Position numbers and translations under genes: made by a program | Notes under the pieces: generated by a model | Told to the model about the DNA's origin: nothing | Databases searched by the model: none | The model's input: only the letters and a program-made list of their open reading frames with translations | Source of the DNA: a virus | Taxonomy: Duplodnaviria > Heunggongvirae > Uroviricota > Caudoviricetes | DNA: 15,816 bases | Virus record (IMG/VR): IMGVR_UViG_2711768076_000018 | Direction: 5' to 3' (one strand) | In this document: one piece after another, positions 8,172 through 14,560 of the stretch | How the letters are laid out: each line of letters opens with the position of its first letter | How positions within the stretch are numbered: position 1 is the stretch's first letter

Positions 8172-8354
8172 GAAGGTTTTCTCGCATTGGTTAAGATTCA
8201 GGACGTGAAACCAACACGGGGGGAGCGCCGCCCGACACTCTCGGCATCTCGCAGATCAACCCGGCATCGCGCAGGGGGTCAGGCGGCATTGTGGCGGCTC
8301 ACGTCTGAGTGCCACACGCCAACATATACATAAAAATCAGTATGTAAACATCAA

Positions 8355-8392
8355 CCAGAATCACCGAACAACCTGGAACAACCACGAACAAA
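8355..8392 (-). promoter_or_regulatory. three 10-bp-phased TTGTTC repeats upstream of the capsid operon (candidate activator site)
   Basis: Plus-strand GAACAA at 8366, 8376 and 8386. On the minus strand this reads TTGTTCGTGGTTGTTCCAGGTTGTTCGG. The 18-mer TTGTTCGTGGTTGTTCCA is identical to 14651-14668. Confidence 0.5.
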
Positions 8393-8407
8393 TAATTTAC
8401 AAAACCT

Positions 8408-8440
8408 GAAAAAAGGCCCGGAAAAAATCCGGGCCTTTAT
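8408..8440 (-). terminator. intrinsic terminator after the replication/ProQ operon (bidirectional-capable)
   Basis: GGCCCGGA-loop-TCCGGGCC hairpin. The minus-strand RNA has a U6 tract after the stem. Lies just 3' of the 82-aa ORF and about 240 bp upstream of the capsid start. Confidence 0.7.
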
Positions 8441-8444
8441 CGCT

Positions 8445-8693
8445 TTATTGTTTCACTGGCTCCCGCATTCTGCGTCTTATTTTCCACAAATATTCGATCA
8501 TCGCTTCCACCTGCTCACGGTTGGTTGCGAAAATTTCCCCGGTCAGTGAGCTACGCAGAAAATCATGATGATCCACAAAAAATAACGCATCGGAAGAAAG
8601 CAACCGACGATATTTTTTTGCTGTCGTGGTTTCCAGATCATCAAAACCATGAAGCTTTTTATGTTGCTGAACTTCTTCAAATGTCACTGGCAT
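8445..8693 (-). CDS. hypothetical protein (82 aa)
   Basis: ATG at 8693 overlaps the end of the ProQ/FinO gene by 10 nt. No family recognised. Confidence 0.5.
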   Translation of the reverse strand: MPVTFEEVQQHKKLHGFDDLETTTAKKYRRLLSSDALFFVDHHDFLRSSLTGEIFATNREQVEAMIEYLWKIRRRMREPVKQ

Positions 8694-9214
8694 GTATCCC
8701 CCTTTGCTGCCCGGCGCTGGCGCTTGTGCTTCTCATTCAGCACCATCAGCCGTGTTTCTGCCTCCTGCTGTTCCTGTGGTGTCACTTCCCCACATGGCTG
8801 GCCTTTCAGGTCGTAACGTGCGCCACCAGCTATCAGGGCGCGGTAATAGCGCGGAGACTGCGCATAGGATGCCAGCGTCGCACGTAATACCCCCGGCCCG
8901 AATGCCAGCCCCCTGACGGCGATATCCTGCATCAGGTCGTCGAATATCCCCACCTTAAGCGGCTTCGGTGCTTTATGGCTGAATAAGTCAGGCCACATCT
9001 CAGTGAGGCGGTTAACGCGTCGGCGGTTTTTGCGCTGCCTTTTGGTCATATGCTGCCACGGTGTCGCCCCTGTGGGCTTCTGCTGTGCGTTCTGATTGCC
9101 GGGTATCACTTTATGCGCCGATGTGGTTTTATCCTGCTCTTGCGCCGCCTGCGTCGTTTTCTGCGGCGTGCCGTAAATGCCTTTCGGCTTCCGGTTAATG
9201 GTCAGCGTTGTCAT
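8684..9214 (-). CDS. ProQ/FinO-domain RNA-binding protein
   Basis: 176 aa. The segment PLKVGIFDDLMQDI ... LRATLASYAQSPRYYRALIAGGARYDLKGQPCGEVTPQEQ matches the ProQ N-terminal FinO-like domain from memory (PLKIGIFQDL ... [22 protein letters not shown]). Basic low-complexity N-terminus. ATG 9214 with GGGGAAGG SD. Confidence 0.75.
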   Translation of the reverse strand: MTTLTINRKPKGIYGTPQKTTQAAQEQDKTTSAHKVIPGNQNAQQKPTGATPWQHMTKRQRKNRRRVNRLTEMWPDLFSHKAPKPLKVGIFDDLMQDIAVRGLAFGPGVLRATLASYAQSPRYYRALIAGGARYDLKGQPCGEVTPQEQQEAETRLMVLNEKHKRQRRAAKGDTCQ

Positions 9215-9250: not shown

Positions 9251-9676
9251 TTAAAACGGTATGTTATCCCCGTACGGGTCATCGTGCTGGCTTGTCTGTT
9301 GTTTTGCCCTGTTCAGTGCGTCAGTGGCCTGGCCCTGTTGACCTTTTTTGCCGCCCGGTCGCGCCGTTCGCGCACTGATTACGCTGTCTGCAATAACCTG
9401 CCAGCCCTGCCGCGTTTCCCCGTTCTGGCCTGTCCACTGGCTCACCTGCATGTTACCCGCCACGCTCACCAGTTCGCCTTTGTGGTGTTTTGCCAGTGCG
9501 TCGGCCTGTCTGCCAAACGCCAGGACAGATAACCACATCGTCGCCGTTCCGTCATCTGCCTGGCTGCACGGCAGGGGAACCGCCATACTCGCCATCGCCA
9601 TTTGTGTCCCTTTGCTGGTGGTCTTTAACTGCGGGTCAGCCACCAGCCGCCCGTAAGCCGCTATCTGTGCTGTCAT
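9251..9676 (-). CDS. ssb: single-stranded DNA-binding protein
   Basis: 141 aa with an OB-fold N-terminus (YGRLVADPQLKTTSKG ...), a Gly/Gln-rich linker and an acidic tip DDPYGDNIPF (compare DDDIPF in E. coli SSB). ATG 9676 overlaps the upstream stop. Confidence 0.85.
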   Translation of the reverse strand: MTAQIAAYGRLVADPQLKTTSKGTQMAMASMAVPLPCSQADDGTATMWLSVLAFGRQADALAKHHKGELVSVAGNMQVSQWTGQNGETRQGWQVIADSVISARTARPGGKKGQQGQATDALNRAKQQTSQHDDPYGDNIPF

Positions 9677-9918: not shown

Positions 9919-9963
9919 AGGCTTTACCTCACAGCAATAAAATAAAATTTTTGCATTTTAACC

Positions 9964-10192
9964 CTTCACCTGTTCACCTTTTGAGATTTTCCCTTTTTAT
10001 TCATAATGTTAAGGGGTGAACAGTTTCACAAAAACTATTCACCAACTGTTCACCACTGTTCACCCTTAAAGCTCAATAAATAATCAAAAAGGTGAACAGT
10101 GAATAGTTTGGTGAACAGTTCACAAATAACTGTTCACCCTATAATGTACTGATATAAAAGATATTTATAACAGGGTGAACAGTGGTGAACAG
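9964..10192. repeat. replication origin: iteron array of 9-bp GGTGAACAG / CTGTTCACC repeats flanking AT-rich DNA
   Basis: Perfect copies of GGTGAACAG at 10015, 10091, 10110, 10174 and 10184. Perfect inverse copies CTGTTCACC at 9970, 10046, 10056 and 10130. Degenerate copies at 10035 and 10099. AT-rich stretch at 10140-10170. The array abuts the primase stop at 10206. Confidence 0.75.
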
Positions 10193-10205
10193 TTATTCCA
10201 TAAGT

Positions 10206-12020
10206 TTAATTTTTGCTGTCGTCATTTGTGACCGATGCACATGATGGCATCCAGTCTTCTGAATCCTCTGTCAGTGTCACATTTGAACGCAAACCGTGCT
10301 TCGTTTTCCGTTTTATATACTCCCTGCCATATTCCGCCATTGCCCCCGGCATATCTTTACCGAAGCGCGTCAGTGTTACAGGTTTACCGAATCCGTGTGC
10401 CCTCATATATGCCAGATAGGCGTGATAAAGATACCTGCGCGGACTGAACGGAATAATTTCGGCATTACCCACTAACAGACCATCACACATTACCGACGAC
10501 ATGAGATAGCCACAGAAGTCCACCAGCGAATCGCCCTCGCGTTTTATCACCAGAGCTTCTTCTGATTTCTGCTGCTCATACAGCAGGCGTTTAGCTTCGT
10601 CCTGGTCAGAAAAACGAGTAAGCAGATGGCGAATCACAACCGCCAGCTCTCCTTCTATTTTTTCTGCCAGCATGGGGTCGCGCTCGTTCTCCGGTACAAC
10701 CTCCGAAAAATTGAATATCACCCGACGACGTGAGATCCCCCCGCTGCGGTCACTGAATGACATGGCGTTATTGTTCACCGCCAGCACGACCGCCTGAATG
10801 CGTGTTGAGTAGGGGGCTTTATGCTTCGGGTCGATTGCCACCTTGTCACCGCCTGTAATAGCCTTAATTCCTGCGCCATCACCAGCGTAGCGGGTCATAT
10901 CCGGCATGATAATCAGCGAAAAGCCAACCACTAACGCGCGTTCCCTTGCATCTTCCAGCGCCTTCATGCTTGCCGATACTGTGTTGGCCTTACCCGCCAG
11001 CATGGTGCAAATCTCCGCCATCACGCTTTTACCACTTCCCCCTGGACCTGTTACCTCAATGAATAACTGCCAGTCGTACCGGTTCGCCAGCACCATGAAT
11101 AATGCAGCCAGCACGCGATCCGTCTTGCGGTCATTCTCTGCCACCGAGCAGCGTAACCACTTCCAGAAATTCGGCGCATGTGTTGCCAGCGTTTCCCCCT
11201 CTGCTGGTGGGCTGAAAGGTAATTCACTGGCAATTAACAACCAGTCGTTTTTGTTATGCTCCCGAAAATTACCTGTTCTGGTATCAAATACCCCGTTACT
11301 GAATCCAATCAGGTTACGGGCTGTATTCCCCATTACAGGCAAACTTAACTTCATGGTATCGACCGCCGATTTAATGGCGTTCTGCGAATAGCTGATCTCC
11401 GCATCAATGAAAATCTGCGCCATAGCACGCTGTAACTCTTTATCCTGAATCGGCTCCCATACAACGCCGTTGTAATGGTGAACAGTGTCAGAGTCGGCAT
11501 GAATCGCCAGTTCACCGCCATAATGTGCCAGGAGAACTTCGCCGCGCTGGCTTGCTCCCATCTGGTTAAGCGCCAGTGGTGCGGCGCTGTCTTCTGTTTT
11601 TTTCTTAACAGGAAGCTGAATCACCAGACCATCAGAAAGATTCTGGCGCTCACGGGCCAGATATTCGCGCCAGTTCTGCACCTCCTGGCCGTGCATACCC
11701 TCAGGATAAAAATTTGCATCCTGTACGCCTGCCGCCGCCAGCTTCTGACCAATCGCCTTTATCATTACTGGCGCAAGATATCCGGCCCTGAATATGCGCA
11801 CGGATTTTCTGCCTTCCGGCACAATTTGCAGCTTATCCAGTTCGGATAACTGCTGCTCCCCAAGCCACACAGGAGGCTCATTATCTCCGGCCATACGCGC
11901 GTCATGTTCCTGCCATTGTTTTGCGTGTGACCAGGCATCACTACCCGCAAAAATAATGACTTCTGTTTCTTTGTGTTTTATGCCGCGTGACTGCTGTTTT
12001 ACGTTCGGTGCCAGTTTCAT
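10206..12020 (-). CDS. primase/helicase replication initiator (P4-alpha-like, Walker A NTPase C-terminal domain)
   Basis: 604 aa with Walker A GPGGSGKS in the C-terminal half, of a size typical for satellite or plasmid primase-helicases. ATG 12020 overlaps the upstream stop (ATGA). Confidence 0.85.
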   Translation of the reverse strand: MKLAPNVKQQSRGIKHKETEVIIFAGSDAWSHAKQWQEHDARMAGDNEPPVWLGEQQLSELDKLQIVPEGRKSVRIFRAGYLAPVMIKAIGQKLAAAGVQDANFYPEGMHGQEVQNWREYLARERQNLSDGLVIQLPVKKKTEDSAAPLALNQMGASQRGEVLLAHYGGELAIHADSDTVHHYNGVVWEPIQDKELQRAMAQIFIDAEISYSQNAIKSAVDTMKLSLPVMGNTARNLIGFSNGVFDTRTGNFREHNKNDWLLIASELPFSPPAEGETLATHAPNFWKWLRCSVAENDRKTDRVLAALFMVLANRYDWQLFIEVTGPGGSGKSVMAEICTMLAGKANTVSASMKALEDARERALVVGFSLIIMPDMTRYAGDGAGIKAITGGDKVAIDPKHKAPYSTRIQAVVLAVNNNAMSFSDRSGGISRRRVIFNFSEVVPENERDPMLAEKIEGELAVVIRHLLTRFSDQDEAKRLLYEQQKSEEALVIKREGDSLVDFCGYLMSSVMCDGLLVGNAEIIPFSPRRYLYHAYLAYMRAHGFGKPVTLTRFGKDMPGAMAEYGREYIKRKTKHGLRSNVTLTEDSEDWMPSCASVTNDDSKN

Positions 12021-12555: not shown

Positions 12556-13012
12556 GGCTTACATCCTCAGGAAATTTTCTTCTATAACGCGCCTCTGCCA
12601 CATATTCCGCATAATCGGCGGCGATATTCAGTACATCAAGCCCCGTTGATTTATATTCTCTCGTGGAAAGTAAGAAAAAAGCCGCTCTAATAAGCTCTGG
12701 CATTGACGAAAGCGCATCAGCCGCATCATCAGGAACGCCGGAAAATTCCTGTTTCAGGGAATTAAAACGATCATCACGCATAACCCCCCCATTTTCACAA
12801 TCAGCAATCAGGATGGCTTTAGCCTCATTCAGCGCCATATCCGCACTAAGTTGCATAACAGCCAGTGAGTGAGGAACGAAAGCCCCGGCATATTCTGTTT
12901 CGCTGGTGGCGCGCTTATGCGCCTTGTCTGCGATAACAGAAATATCAATCAGCGCGTGCATCAGCGTTTTGATGGCTTCGGCGGCTGCGTCCGGACGGGT
13001 GTTATTGCACAT
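12548..13012 (-). CDS. hypothetical protein (154 aa)
   Basis: ATG 13012 overlaps the upstream stop by 11 nt. Confidence 0.5.
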   Translation of the reverse strand: MCNNTRPDAAAEAIKTLMHALIDISVIADKAHKRATSETEYAGAFVPHSLAVMQLSADMALNEAKAILIADCENGGVMRDDRFNSLKQEFSGVPDDAADALSSMPELIRAAFFLLSTREYKSTGLDVLNIAADYAEYVAEARYRRKFPEDVSHA

Positions 13013-13208
13013 GGCGTACCCCCTGACGAATACGGGCAGCGAATACCATCACGCAGCCATCAGGAGATTGCTGACGCGCTTCCTGTTCGCTGGTGGCCTC
13101 AATGGTAATCACGCGCGGTTGTGCCGTGCTCAGGGCGATAAAACGCCAGATGTATTTATTCAGGTTGTACGAGTCCCGCCCTTGCGGGTGTCTGGTATAA
13201 TTTCTCAT
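13002..13208 (-). CDS. hypothetical small protein (68 aa), first gene of the leftward replication operon
   Basis: ATG 13208 with GAGG SD. This is the in-frame C-terminal part of a 374-aa ORF-track call that is itself implausible. Confidence 0.4.
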   Translation of the reverse strand: MRNYTRHPQGRDSYNLNKYIWRFIALSTAQPRVITIEATSEQEARQQSPDGCVMVFAARIRQGVRHVQ

Positions 13209-13407
13209 AGCTGCCTCGATACTTCTGCTATCGTTGGTGGTTAGAAGCCCGTTGGTGTTGGTAGCACCTGCGGGCTTTGTCTTTTCATCGATTACCTTAA
13301 TAAAGGTGTCAGCCACTATACTAGTGACAGGTGTCAGCCACGTCAATAGTGTTTTTCTATTTTCTTGTGTGTATACTGTCAGCCACCTAATAACAAGGAA
13401 ATCAGAT
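13209..13407. promoter_or_regulatory. divergent promoter/operator region with three TGTCAGCCAC repeats
   Basis: TGTCAGCCAC at 13307-13316, 13332-13341 and 13377-13386. The third copy overlaps a TATACT -10-like hexamer upstream of the plus-strand gene at 13408. On the minus strand the repeats read GTGGCTGACA and contain -35-like TGACA. Confidence 0.45.
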
Positions 13408-13587
13408 ATGGCAACGAAAGCAGTTAATGGAAAATCCAAAAAACTTGAGGCACGAGTACCCCATGCAATAGCTGACGCTGTAGAAAATTTAAAGGAAGAA
13501 GGCGAAAGCACTGGGCAATTTATCGTTTCGGCGCTTGAAGGTGAGATCAAACGCCGCCAGCGCCGAAAGGCCAAAGAGCAGGAATAA
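13408..13587 (+). CDS. small ribbon-helix-helix-like DNA-binding protein (59 aa), candidate regulator
   Basis: ATG 13408 with AAGGAA SD. The predicted strand-helix-helix pattern (KLEARVPHAIADAVENLKEEGESTGQFIVSALEGEI) and basic C-tail fit an RHH protein. It is one of only two plus-strand genes in the element and diverges from the replication operon. Confidence 0.55.
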   Translation: MATKAVNGKSKKLEARVPHAIADAVENLKEEGESTGQFIVSALEGEIKRRQRRKAKEQE

Positions 13588-13818: not shown

Positions 13819-13884
13819 TTGCATTGCCCACCAGCCGCAAATGTGGCATTGTTGGTGATGCTTTTGTTTTCCCTTGTTCCCACT

Positions 13885-13913
13885 GGCGACCCTTTTGCGG
13901 TCGCCTTTGTTTT
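13885..13913 (+). terminator. intrinsic terminator for the plus-strand small-gene unit
   Basis: GGCGACC-cttttgc-GGTCGCC hairpin followed by TTTGTTTTGCTT. Confidence 0.65.
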
Positions 13914-13951
13914 GCTTGTTATCCGGCAATAGTGGCGCTTCACCACACGGT

Positions 13952-14458: not shown

Positions 14459-14530
14459 ATGTTGAGGCCGTATGGTTTACAGAAAGAGGAACAATCAGGA
14501 TAAAATCATTTAAATTCATGTTAATACAAA

Positions 14531-14560
14531 GGCATAAAATCTCGTTTTATGCCTTTTTTC
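14531..14560 (-). terminator. intrinsic terminator between int and alpA (bidirectional-capable)
   Basis: GGCATAAAA-tctcg-TTTTATGCC hairpin, with TTTTTTC following on the plus strand and TTTGTATT on the minus strand. Confidence 0.6.

Follow-up and report, generated by a model that had tools for sequence, protein, structure and literature searches.

The open reading frame at 8684-9214 on the minus strand of the window, i.e., the whole 15,816-nucleotide stretch of DNA analysed here, very probably encodes a functional FinO-domain protein, predicted to bind RNA, which has FinO-type architecture and is carried as an optional cassette at the distal end of an icd-primase-ssb operon that depends on AlpA, within a capsid-forming PICI (cf-PICI) of E. 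coli. An antisense RNA predicted to be encoded by the same element, opposite the start of the first gene of this operon, is the most plausible candidate partner of the protein.

Identity and structure of the FinO-like protein

The gene and its parts are located as follows.
8684-9214, minus strand: gene for a FinO/ProQ-family protein of 176 amino acids (open reading frame, PF04352, RefSeq, dN/dS)
8711-9025, minus strand: FinO domain, residues 64-168 (Pfam envelope, AlphaFold2, Foldseek, residue mapping to ProQ)
9026-9214, minus strand: N-terminal extension, residues 1-63 (alignment, relatives, pLDDT, dN/dS)

The reading frame begins with ATG, specifies 176 amino acids plus a stop codon and is preceded by an SD-like GGGGAAGG. 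An identical protein is encoded by a RefSeq CDS of E. coli JP538 (WP_000209991.1), where it carries the label 'ProQ/FINO family protein'. A preliminary description of this DNA had recognized a FinO/ProQ domain in the product and had named a failed profile search as one outcome that would speak against it. The Pfam profile search returned PF04352 (ProQ/FINO) at E=1.2e-23 with 83.5 bits (gathering score 27), aligning profile positions 5-108 of 109 (104/109) with residues 64-168, and the match is far beyond chance. Comparison with PDB sequences using phmmer matched the protein to the ProQ NTD (5nb9, E=1e-11) and FinO (9e-11), and also to NMB1681 and RocC. The AlphaFold2 model, with pLDDT values of 84-94 across residues 60-170, contains helices at 58-73, 90-101, 107-118, 121-129 and 146-171 and strands at 132-134 and 140-143, and thus combines the helical domain and the β-hairpin forming a concave face that were taken as the mark of the FinO fold. 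All 26 significant Foldseek matches of this model in the PDB were FinO-domain proteins (FinO, NMB1681, RocC and Lpp ProQ), and FinO itself (1dvo) superimposed with an rmsd of 1.8 Å over 98 columns.

The protein is neither FinO proper, as it scores 65.5 bits against the NCBIfam FinO model NF010317 (cut-off 136), nor ProQ, since the equivalog model NF003434 gives 58.4 bits (cut-off 127) and covers only positions 5-117 of 205. Its architecture is of the FinO type, consisting of a conserved basic N-terminal extension and a single FinO domain, and the polypeptide stops 8 residues past this domain, without the linker and the C-terminal Tudor-like domain found in ProQ. The N-terminal extension contains the motif 'LTINRKPKG', which is conserved, a stretch of low complexity for which disorder is predicted, and a Trp that precedes a helix rich in Arg/Lys (residues 52-73). 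Residues M1, T5, I6 and R8 are invariant in the homologue alignment, and the dN/dS ratio in the N-terminal part is 0.15; residues 1-45 have pLDDT values below 50 in the AlphaFold2 model. The 'LTINRKPKG' motif also occurs in distant relatives, whose N-termini resemble that of FinO.

The ProQ residues K35, G37, D41, R58, R69, Y70 and R80 are kept as K87, G89, D93, R111, R122, Y123 and R133, respectively. Among 18 homologues, G89 is invariant, Y123 and R133 are nearly so, and R111 is present in 16. ProQ Y70, R80 and R58 are indispensable for RNA binding, and the importance of the Tyr/Arg pocket (Y70/R80) together with R58 and G37 is documented (PMC10168233). Y123 and R133 are predicted to form the corresponding pocket for an RNA 3' end. 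The ProQ residues K54 and R62, which contact dsRNA, are not kept and correspond to P107 and A115.

A scan of synonymous-site conservation along the gene, meant to reveal any antisense RNA that overlaps it, picked out no segment, with homologues too similar to give the scan power. Terminator-like hairpins on the plus strand, antisense to the gene, were seen at 9022-9039 and 9274-9342; they are weak and lie within coding sequence. Searches of the gene and nine neighbouring ones with the PADLOC defence models yielded no match.

Satellite and operon context

The features of the operon are listed in the order of transcription.
13318-13346, minus strand: promoter-like site TTGACG-17-TAGTAT for the icd-to-orf82 operon (sequence)
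13002-13208, minus strand: icd-like gene, 68 amino acids, at the head of the operon (NF033153, 70.3 bits, cut-off 25)
10206-12020, minus strand: P4-family primase/helicase (profile matches to D5_N, DUF5906 and Pox_D5)
9958-10207, strand not assigned: replication origin with ~12 GGTGAACAG iterons in both orientations (sequence)
9251-9676, minus strand: SSB gene, directly upstream of the FinO-like gene (PF00436)
8445-8693, minus strand: orf82 (phrog_1957), last gene before the terminator
8406-8436, minus strand: intrinsic terminator of the replication operon, AGGCCCGGAUUUUUUCCGGGCCU then UUUUUCAG (dG -18.5; z=-4.8)

The cf-PICIs have been defined as elements with PICI-type int, alpA and rep genes, their own genes for capsid, protease, portal, connector, HNH, terS and terL arranged in this order, no tail genes, and a length of ~15 kb (10.1101/2022.09.08.507074). 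The gene content of the window agrees with this definition, with the integrase cut by the window end, and identifies the element as a cf-PICI of the published layout, which bears out the phage-satellite setting assigned to the gene in the preliminary description. Genes for AlpA, an icd-like product, a DUF4222 protein, a P4-type primase, SSB and the FinO-like protein are accompanied by the iterons and a partial integrase gene. From icd to orf82 all genes are co-directional and tightly spaced or overlapping, as where the icd-like stop overlaps the start of orf154, and the run closes at the terminator at 8436-8406; three GTCAGCCAC repeats flank the promoter-like site. Located 3' of primase, origin and ssb, the FinO-like gene belongs by position to the replication operon, as had been proposed. 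Its stop overlaps the start of orf82 by 10 nt, which suggests translational coupling.

The terminator that closes the operon has A residues upstream that are able to pair with the U tail, and it is a possible 3'-end ligand. Binding of the protein at 8436-8406 could keep 3' exonucleases and polyadenylation away from the icd-primase-ssb-FinO-orf82 transcript, in the way that ProQ acts on cspE and further mRNAs, and thereby boost replication functions after induction. The canonical form of the hairpin, the A residues facing the U tail, which follow the pattern of ProQ ligands, and the presence of a terminator directly 3' of the gene in the most divergent homologues (L082-L085) favour such a role, and one report describes ProQ as raising mRNA levels by 3'-end protection (PMC12086684). 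Nevertheless, the terminator is shared with elements that lack the FinO-like gene and is part of orf82 rather than of the cassette, while in classical PICIs perC and other cargo follow the gene in place of this terminator. Positive autoregulation would also leave the dispensability of the cassette unexplained, and protection of its own mRNA is an improbable function for the protein.

The FinO-like gene as an exchangeable cassette

Comparison of 33 cf-PICI loci revealed that the slot between ssb and orf82 holds a FinO-like gene in 15, perC in 12 and nothing in 6. In near-identical FinO+ and PerC+ cf-PICIs, the swap is confined to the interval from the ssb stop codon, which forms the left border of the cassette, to the point where orf82 starts, and there is no further linked difference next to it. 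A partner RNA gene inherited together with the cassette, at its side, can be dismissed on the basis of this comparison. In cf-PICIs with or without the FinO cassette, orf82 lies upstream of the capsid gene. The FinO-like gene is thus an exchangeable accessory cassette and not core replication machinery.

Relatives of the gene are also found in classical PICIs and in CP4-57-like islands, the latter being devoid of PICI functions and holding close relatives, some of them truncated or frameshifted. All 1565 DNA matches in E. coli were chromosomal and situated in PICIs or islands, and DNA-level homologues occur in ~20% of complete E. coli genomes. A search of genome contigs with the single protein as query found one locus only, in E. 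ruysiae; an alignment query would reach further.

The damaged island copies and the dispensability of the cassette could be taken to mean that the gene is a decaying passenger without current function in the element. The reading frame is nonetheless intact in all 72 PICI/cf-PICI loci that contain the whole gene, which represent 50 distinct sequences, and the median dN/dS of 0.25 (46 comparisons) indicates purifying selection, with the still lower value in the N-terminal part. The SD-like sequence, the overlap with orf82, the retention of critical RNA-binding residues and the occurrence of one allele in more than 4000 blocks of the searched collection likewise speak for a gene in use, and decay is an unlikely explanation, to which we give hardly any credence.

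A predicted antisense RNA over the icd start

Two features overlap the beginning of the operon on the opposite strand.
13207-13290, plus strand: predicted cis-antisense RNA of ~80 nt (folding, covariation, covariance model R1)
13193-13201, plus strand: promoter-like motif of the extended -10 type, TGGTATAAT, assigned to the antisense RNA, within the first icd codons

The RNA is complementary to the SD sequence, ATG and leader of icd and is predicted to fold into two stem-loops, the second of which (13244-13279) constitutes a terminator whose apex is hypervariable and which carries a U-rich tail (z=-5.1 for 13207-13290). The RNAalifold consensus is -34.1 kcal/mol for the plus strand and -8.4 kcal/mol for the minus strand, and the plus strand is the stabler one in 24/24 sequences. 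This difference arises because several invariant pairs are G-U pairs, available on the plus strand only. Together with the weak minus-strand consensus, these pairs led us to reject a sense-strand leader, a C4/CI-like RNA and a DNA operator as explanations of the hairpin. The MAFFT alignment contains 8 compensatory pairs and the one fitted to the covariance model 13, values that 0/500 shuffles reach, and 98-99% of cells are paired, compared to 34-55% when partners are slid.

Covariance model R1 scores 84 bits at 13207-13290 and has full-length matches in more than 60 loci. Nearly every PICI locus examined contains the RNA, and in more than 60 PICI and cf-PICI loci, whose replicases differ, it always lies on the strand opposite the operon. 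Its transcription is predicted from the promoter-like motif, whose TAnnnT element stands at a constant distance in all variants, even where the N-terminus of Icd differs. The terminator hairpin is hypervariable at its apex, whereas the flanks are 90-97% identical, which is the pattern of specificity-determining antisense loops. At the terminator's base, A-U/G-U pairs link the upstream sequence to the U tail.

SymR (RF01809) was the best Rfam match, extending over the full model length on the same strand and with the same ends as the predicted RNA; with its score of 23.7 bits (gathering score 61; E=0.015 with 241 nt searched), the RNA is not a member of that family. For the Rfam C4 model, neither the whole window (E<=1) nor 13120-13360 (E<=10) gave a match. 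Over the whole window, Rfam returned only sub-threshold matches to plant miRNAs, which were discarded as spurious products of the origin iterons.

A possible FinOP-like circuit

The preliminary description had proposed RNA-level control within the element and had mentioned a candidate sRNA ~5 kb away, which came without coordinates and may or may not be the RNA at 13207-13290. The proposal itself gains support from the covariation-backed cis-antisense RNA, ~4 kb from the gene and directed at the gene that heads the same operon. An identical allele of this RNA occurs with and without the FinO-like gene.

A FinOP-like circuit, in which the protein binds the 13207-13290 (+) RNA of its own element, is a tentative proposal that falls somewhat short of an even chance. 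The analysis establishes the domain, fold and conserved residues of the protein, the place of its gene in the operon and its nature as a cassette, and the conservation and structure of the antisense RNA; RNA binding, choice of ligand and regulatory outcome are all things that we infer. The Y123/R133 pocket with R111, on the concave face, would clamp the 3' end and lower stem of a terminator hairpin, and the preferred ligand would be the ~80-nt cis-antisense RNA directed against the icd SD, start codon and leader. By stabilizing this RNA, accelerating its pairing, or both, the protein would strengthen translational repression of icd, and this repression would extend, via the overlap of reading frames, to the downstream replication genes. 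The outcome would be a negative feedback loop, since the operon that the protein would help to repress is also the one that encodes it, at its distal end.

The topology supports this proposal, as the FinO-like gene is distal in the operon and the RNA covers the first translation-initiation region of that operon. Terminator hairpins are bound by FinO-domain proteins, among whose ligands cis-antisense RNAs are enriched (PMC5391140; PMC12001967), and the characterised plasmid-borne members act on an antisense RNA of their own element (PMC9977716). In a sample of cf-PICIs assembled by capsid, the gene was found in 11/25 elements with the RNA and 0/13 without it, an association confounded by relatedness. 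On the other hand, the identical allele in FinO+ and FinO- elements implies that the RNA works without the protein, perhaps using host ProQ, and co-adaptation of the RNA to the presence of FinO is rejected on the same grounds. The A-U/G-U base of the terminator is typical of ProQ ligands, while FinO ligands have a purine-purine mismatch at this position (PMC12001967). Homologues in CP4-57-like islands had no such antisense RNA within 9 kb.

A different role would be that of a moron-like accessory regulator with targets beyond the element, in which the protein would be a promiscuous ProQ-like binder, competing with or supplementing host ProQ on host sRNAs and mRNAs, or on antisense RNAs of the helper phage. 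The satellite would carry it in order to manipulate host or helper, in the same manner as the PerC transcription regulators found in this slot. The slot is exchanged or shared with perC, a known accessory regulator of PICIs (PMC11773190), close relatives reside in islands devoid of PICI functions, and many otherwise identical cf-PICIs lack the gene. The conserved pocket residues are generic to the family, so that nothing confines the protein to a single RNA, and a minimal FinO-domain protein can bind globally, according to one study (PMC7272453). Against this stand the expectation that the operon is induced only with AlpA and helper, leaving little time for host reprogramming, the loss of the dsRNA-contact residues of ProQ, and the narrow, element-encoded targets of the characterised mobile-element proteins FinO and FopA (PMC9977716). 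We consider a role of this kind rather unlikely.

Extended to the population of satellites, the FinOP-like proposal would describe an RNA switch hitherto undescribed in enterobacterial PICIs and cf-PICIs. The gate of the icd-replication operon would be a conserved SymR-like cis-antisense RNA, the apex of its terminator loop, being hypervariable, would set immunity or incompatibility types of satellites, and the FinO cassette would supply the protein arm, with FinOP-like feedback tuning silence or the cross-regulation of co-resident satellites. In this full form the scheme is doubtful, although not far-fetched.

Relation to known RNA-based regulatory systems

The finO gene sits at the far end of a long operon on a mobile element, and F itself is not known to have a functional FinO. 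The satellite protein resembles FinO of F-like plasmids in its single domain after a basic N-terminal extension, in the lack of a Tudor-like C-terminal domain, and in ~35% identity over residues 74-168. The proposed satellite loop has the same topology as FinO/FinP/traJ. In both cases the element encodes an antisense RNA (a predicted one in the satellite) of ~80 nt with two stem-loops, placed over the RBS of the first or regulatory gene of an operon, in which the loops vary by allele, and the protein gene is interchangeable or absent. The satellite gene differs in being chromosomal and in belonging to a phage satellite rather than a conjugative plasmid; no tra genes were found within the window, and the putative target is an icd-like gene that heads a replication operon instead of traJ. 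The protein score below the FinO cut-off and the ProQ-type look of the terminator base of the candidate RNA are further departures from FinO and FinP.

The SymR promoter lies inside its target ORF, and SymR covers the SD sequence and start codon of that target. Both properties are also predicted for the satellite RNA, for which SymR is the closest if sub-threshold Rfam relative, but the target here is icd-like and not SymE. As would hold for the satellite, a small RNA controls whether the icd gene at the head of the c4-icd-ant immunity operon of phage P1 is translated. P1 C4 and P4 CI differ in being sense-strand, trans-acting processed RNAs.

FopA of the IncI plasmid pCol1B9 stabilises Inc, an antisense RNA, and favours its pairing with the repZ mRNA leader (PMC9977716). 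The logic would be the same in the satellite, where a replication operon would be under antisense control exerted at the translation-initiation region of its small leading ORF. The satellite differs from that replicon in its P4-type primase and iteron origin and in the optional nature of the cassette. ProQ, which prefers cis-antisense RNAs such as type I antitoxins and binds at terminators (PMC5391140), shares the FinO domain and the conserved Y70, R80, R58, G37 and K35 with the satellite protein. In contrast to ProQ, which is core chromosomal, the satellite protein is mobile and facultative and lacks K54 and R62 as well as the linker and C-terminal domain.

Implications for satellite biology

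The gene family is already known from RefSeq annotation and from passing mentions in satellite papers. In the papers searched, FinO/ProQ or antisense RNA in PICIs appears in passing annotations only, with no RNA-level layer described and no study of FinO-domain proteins, and control of Gram-negative PICIs is currently described as AlpA plus helper-phage induction. If the protein and the antisense RNA cooperate, phage satellites would join F-like and IncI plasmids as a third kind of mobile element in which a FinO-type chaperone and a cis-antisense RNA throttle the element's own activation; if the target proves to be another, the protein would be one more annotated paralogue of the FinO family. 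Homologues of the protein could also perturb ProQ-dependent regulation in pathogens. Should the proposal be true, the natural FinO, PerC and empty variants of the cassette would provide ready-made isogenic controls.

Genetic Setting of the FinO-Like Gene

The window carries allC followed by a capsid-forming PICI (cf-PICI), a phage satellite of Escherichia coli, on the minus strand.

Gene order of the cf-PICI (transcription from right to left of the window)
First gene: partial integrase
After the integrase: AlpA (PF05930)
13002..13208, minus: icd-like gene (NF033153), after AlpA
After the icd-like gene: orf154, orf77 and a DUF4222 gene
After the DUF4222 gene: P4-type primase
9958-10207: replication origin between primase and orf81, with ~12 GGTGAACAG iterons in both orientations forming long inverted repeats
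After the origin, in this order: orf81, SSB, FinO-like gene, orf82
8684-9214, minus: FinO-like ORF, ATG start, 176 codons plus stop
8436-8406, minus: strong terminator after orf82
8348-8321, minus: promoter-like site after the terminator
End module, in order: major capsid, protease, portal, connector, HNH, TerS, TerL

This order is that of the published cf-PICI organization, in the description of which a ProQ/FinO gene is not mentioned (10.1101/2022.09.08.507074), and the satellite setting proposed in the preliminary description was borne out, with the FinO-like gene following the primase, origin and SSB. At 8300-8440 (minus strand), the terminator gives way to the promoter-like site and a 270-nt untranslated stretch ahead of the capsid gene, an arrangement that suggests that the packaging module is a transcription unit separate from the replication operon. 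Rfam matches of the origin to plant miRNAs were sub-threshold and spurious, being produced by the GGTGAACAG iterons.

Family, Fold, and Conservation of the Protein

The FinO-like ORF has GGGGAAGG a few bases 5' of its ATG, and its last 10 nt are overlapped by the start of orf82. The CDS is 100% identical to RefSeq WP_000209991.1 of E. coli JP538, a "ProQ/FINO family protein"; its family already has a name in RefSeq. The FinO domain noticed earlier was confirmed by the HMM search suggested at that time, which matched PF04352 (ProQ/FINO) to residues 64-168 with 83.5 bits (E=1.2e-23; Pfam cut-off 27). The NCBIfam models for FinO (65.5 bits, cut-off 136) and ProQ (58.4 bits, cut-off 127) scored below threshold, and on its sequence the 176-aa protein is classed as a ProQ/FinO superfamily member outside both named families. 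A PDB sequence search returned the ProQ NTD, FinO, NMB1681, and RocC. The AlphaFold2 model is confident for residues 60-170 and disordered for residues 1-45, and all 26 of its significant Foldseek matches in the PDB are FinO-domain structures, in further agreement with the earlier assignment.

A 63-residue N-terminal extension is present and a C-terminal domain absent, an architecture that resembles FinO and differs from ProQ. Within the extension, the motif LTINRKPKG is invariant across the subfamily and is found again in relatives sharing 30-50% identity, which begin MTEQK..LTIKRKPK, a sequence resembling the N-terminus of FinO. The gene has a dN/dS of 0.25 overall and 0.15 over the N-terminal 60 residues, and it is very unlikely to be a non-functional remnant. 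ProQ residues K35, G37, D41, R58, R69, Y70, and R80 are kept as K87, G89, D93, R111, R122, Y123, and R133, while K54 and R62 are replaced by P107 and A115; substitution of Y70, R80 or R58 abolishes RNA binding by ProQ (PMC10168233).

Distribution and an Exchangeable Slot

Mobile elements are a familiar source of FinO-domain proteins. Passing mentions of ProQ/FinO-like genes exist for an Enterobacter PICI and for Vibrio satellite-plasmids; the literature searched contained no functional study of satellite-borne members. A HMMER search of the full library recovered only nine cluster representatives at E<=1e-30; the subfamily is narrow and enterobacterial, and the superfamily around it numbers 2148 representatives. 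Among 5426 complete E. coli genomes, 1095 have homologues that can be detected at the DNA level; every one is chromosomal, and a single genome has up to nine copies. Phage genomes gave seven weak matches only, and plasmids gave FinO at ~35% identity plus one 60% match.

The gene is invariably located 3' of PICI replication genes, at 80 IMG/VR loci as well as at several loci from genomes, regardless of the replicase (D5_N/DUF5906 variants, DUF927) and of whether SSB is present. In classical PICIs, the perC start overlaps the FinO-like stop (ATGA), and the two genes are adjacent and translationally coupled; perC comes first in one case (L140). The commonest allele, P0046, occurs in >4000 blocks of the collection. 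Classical PICIs with a DUF927 replicase carry it (L142-L144), and there it is followed by three long ORFs of 600-918 aa that lack annotation and may form a defence system. CP4-57-like islands also carry homologues, often truncated or frameshifted. At three such E. coli chromosomal loci (L003-L005), homologues of 63-75% identity, several of them damaged in this way, are stand-alone genes neighboured by YfjJ/"inovirus Gp2," AlpA-like, and zinc-ribbon genes.

Within cf-PICIs, the gene occupies a slot with precise borders, from the ssb stop (9251) to the orf82 start (8693) (loci L089-L129).

Slot content in 33 cf-PICI loci retrieved via the capsid protein
FinO-like gene: 15 loci
perC gene (PF06069): 12 loci
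17-18 nt only: 6 loci

In pairwise comparison, elements 96-99% identical elsewhere differ at this slot and a few short mosaic patches. It follows that a cf-PICI can complete its life cycle without the gene; judged from these pairs, it is an exchangeable accessory cassette. No RNA gene was co-inherited beside the cassette in the near-identical pairs. The protein might be an accessory regulator directed at the host or helper, a reading that we consider unlikely.

A Conserved Predicted Antisense RNA Opposite the icd-Like Gene

A search for intrinsic terminators located a strong one on the plus strand, opposite the start of the icd operon, with a promoter motif upstream.

13244-13287, plus: terminator
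13193-13201, plus: extended -10 motif TGGTATAAT, ~40 nt 5' of the terminator, within the first icd-like codons

The promoter is predicted to sit inside the target ORF. The RNA would run from ~13207-13209 to ~13290 and be complementary to the icd start codon, SD, and leader; the icd-like stop in turn overlaps the start of the next ORF. Conservation of this region exceeds that of neighbouring genes, and the terminator hairpin apex is hypervariable yet still paired. From 24 distinct sequences aligned with MAFFT, RNAalifold predicted two stem-loops with 8 compensatory pairs; 98.9% of cells were paired, compared with 34-55% when partners were slid, and none of 500 shuffles reached the observed covariation. 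The consensus energy was -34.1 kcal/mol on the plus strand vs. -8.4 on the minus strand, and the plus strand, owing to invariant G-U pairs, was the more stable in 24/24 sequences; z for the plus strand was -5.1. The covariance model matched at full length in >60 PICI/cf-PICI loci, always on the strand opposite the operon, with divergent variants at 40-66 bits. In the divergent class, stem-loop I covaries as well, with U-A in place of A-U in ~25 sequences, and a TAnnnT -10 motif keeps a constant distance despite a differing Icd N-terminus. Together, these features predict a conserved, structured plus-strand RNA of ~80 nt with two stem-loops (13207-13290). Its best Rfam match, to SymR, which shares its strand and ends, is sub-threshold (23.7 bits; gathering score 61); C4/CI had no match in the window or this region, and no description of this RNA was found in the literature searched.

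A Possible Link Between Protein and RNA

In terminator hairpins, the parts bound by FinO-domain proteins are the lower stem and the 3' tail (PMC10168233, PMC5391140, PMC12001967). Such binding could protect the 3' end of the protein's own mRNA, which we regard as distinctly improbable. Cis-antisense RNAs are enriched among the ligands (PMC5391140, PMC12001967), and FinO and FopA target antisense RNAs of their own elements (PMC9977716). The cf-PICI shares the topology of the FinOP system (FinO protein, FinP antisense RNA, and traJ mRNA of F-like plasmids), in that the FinO-like gene is distal in its operon and the RNA covers the first translation-initiation region. The gene occurs in 11 of 25 elements with the RNA and 0 of 13 without it, in a capsid-based sample that is not phylogenetically independent. 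A FinOP-like mechanism, in which the protein acts with the element's own antisense RNA, is possible but somewhat doubtful. Against it, the RNA belongs to the backbone of the element and is found whether or not the cassette is there, in one case as the identical allele in both states; its terminator base is ProQ-type, unlike the FinP type (as defined in PMC12001967); and no such RNA was detected within 9 kb of the homologues on CP4-57-like islands. The conserved RNA adds to the interest of the FinO-like gene, since it opens an RNA-level control circuit in PICIs to direct testing.

Other elements lie nearby. Three exact GTCAGCCAC repeats (13308-13386, plus), probably operator sites for a repressor acting on the switch, surround the divergent promoter region between a YlcI/YnfO-family gene (13408-13587, plus) and the icd operon (minus). 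The ylcI-orf62 transcript converges on alpA and ends 3' of orf62 at two successive hairpins, each followed by a T run (13821-13914, plus), which may be the "candidate sRNA" of the preliminary description. Between int and alpA, an AT-rich hairpin with a perfect 13-bp stem, bordered by one run of A and one of T (14528-14556), looks like a bidirectional terminator and could mark the end of the int transcript and/or a short plus-strand RNA.
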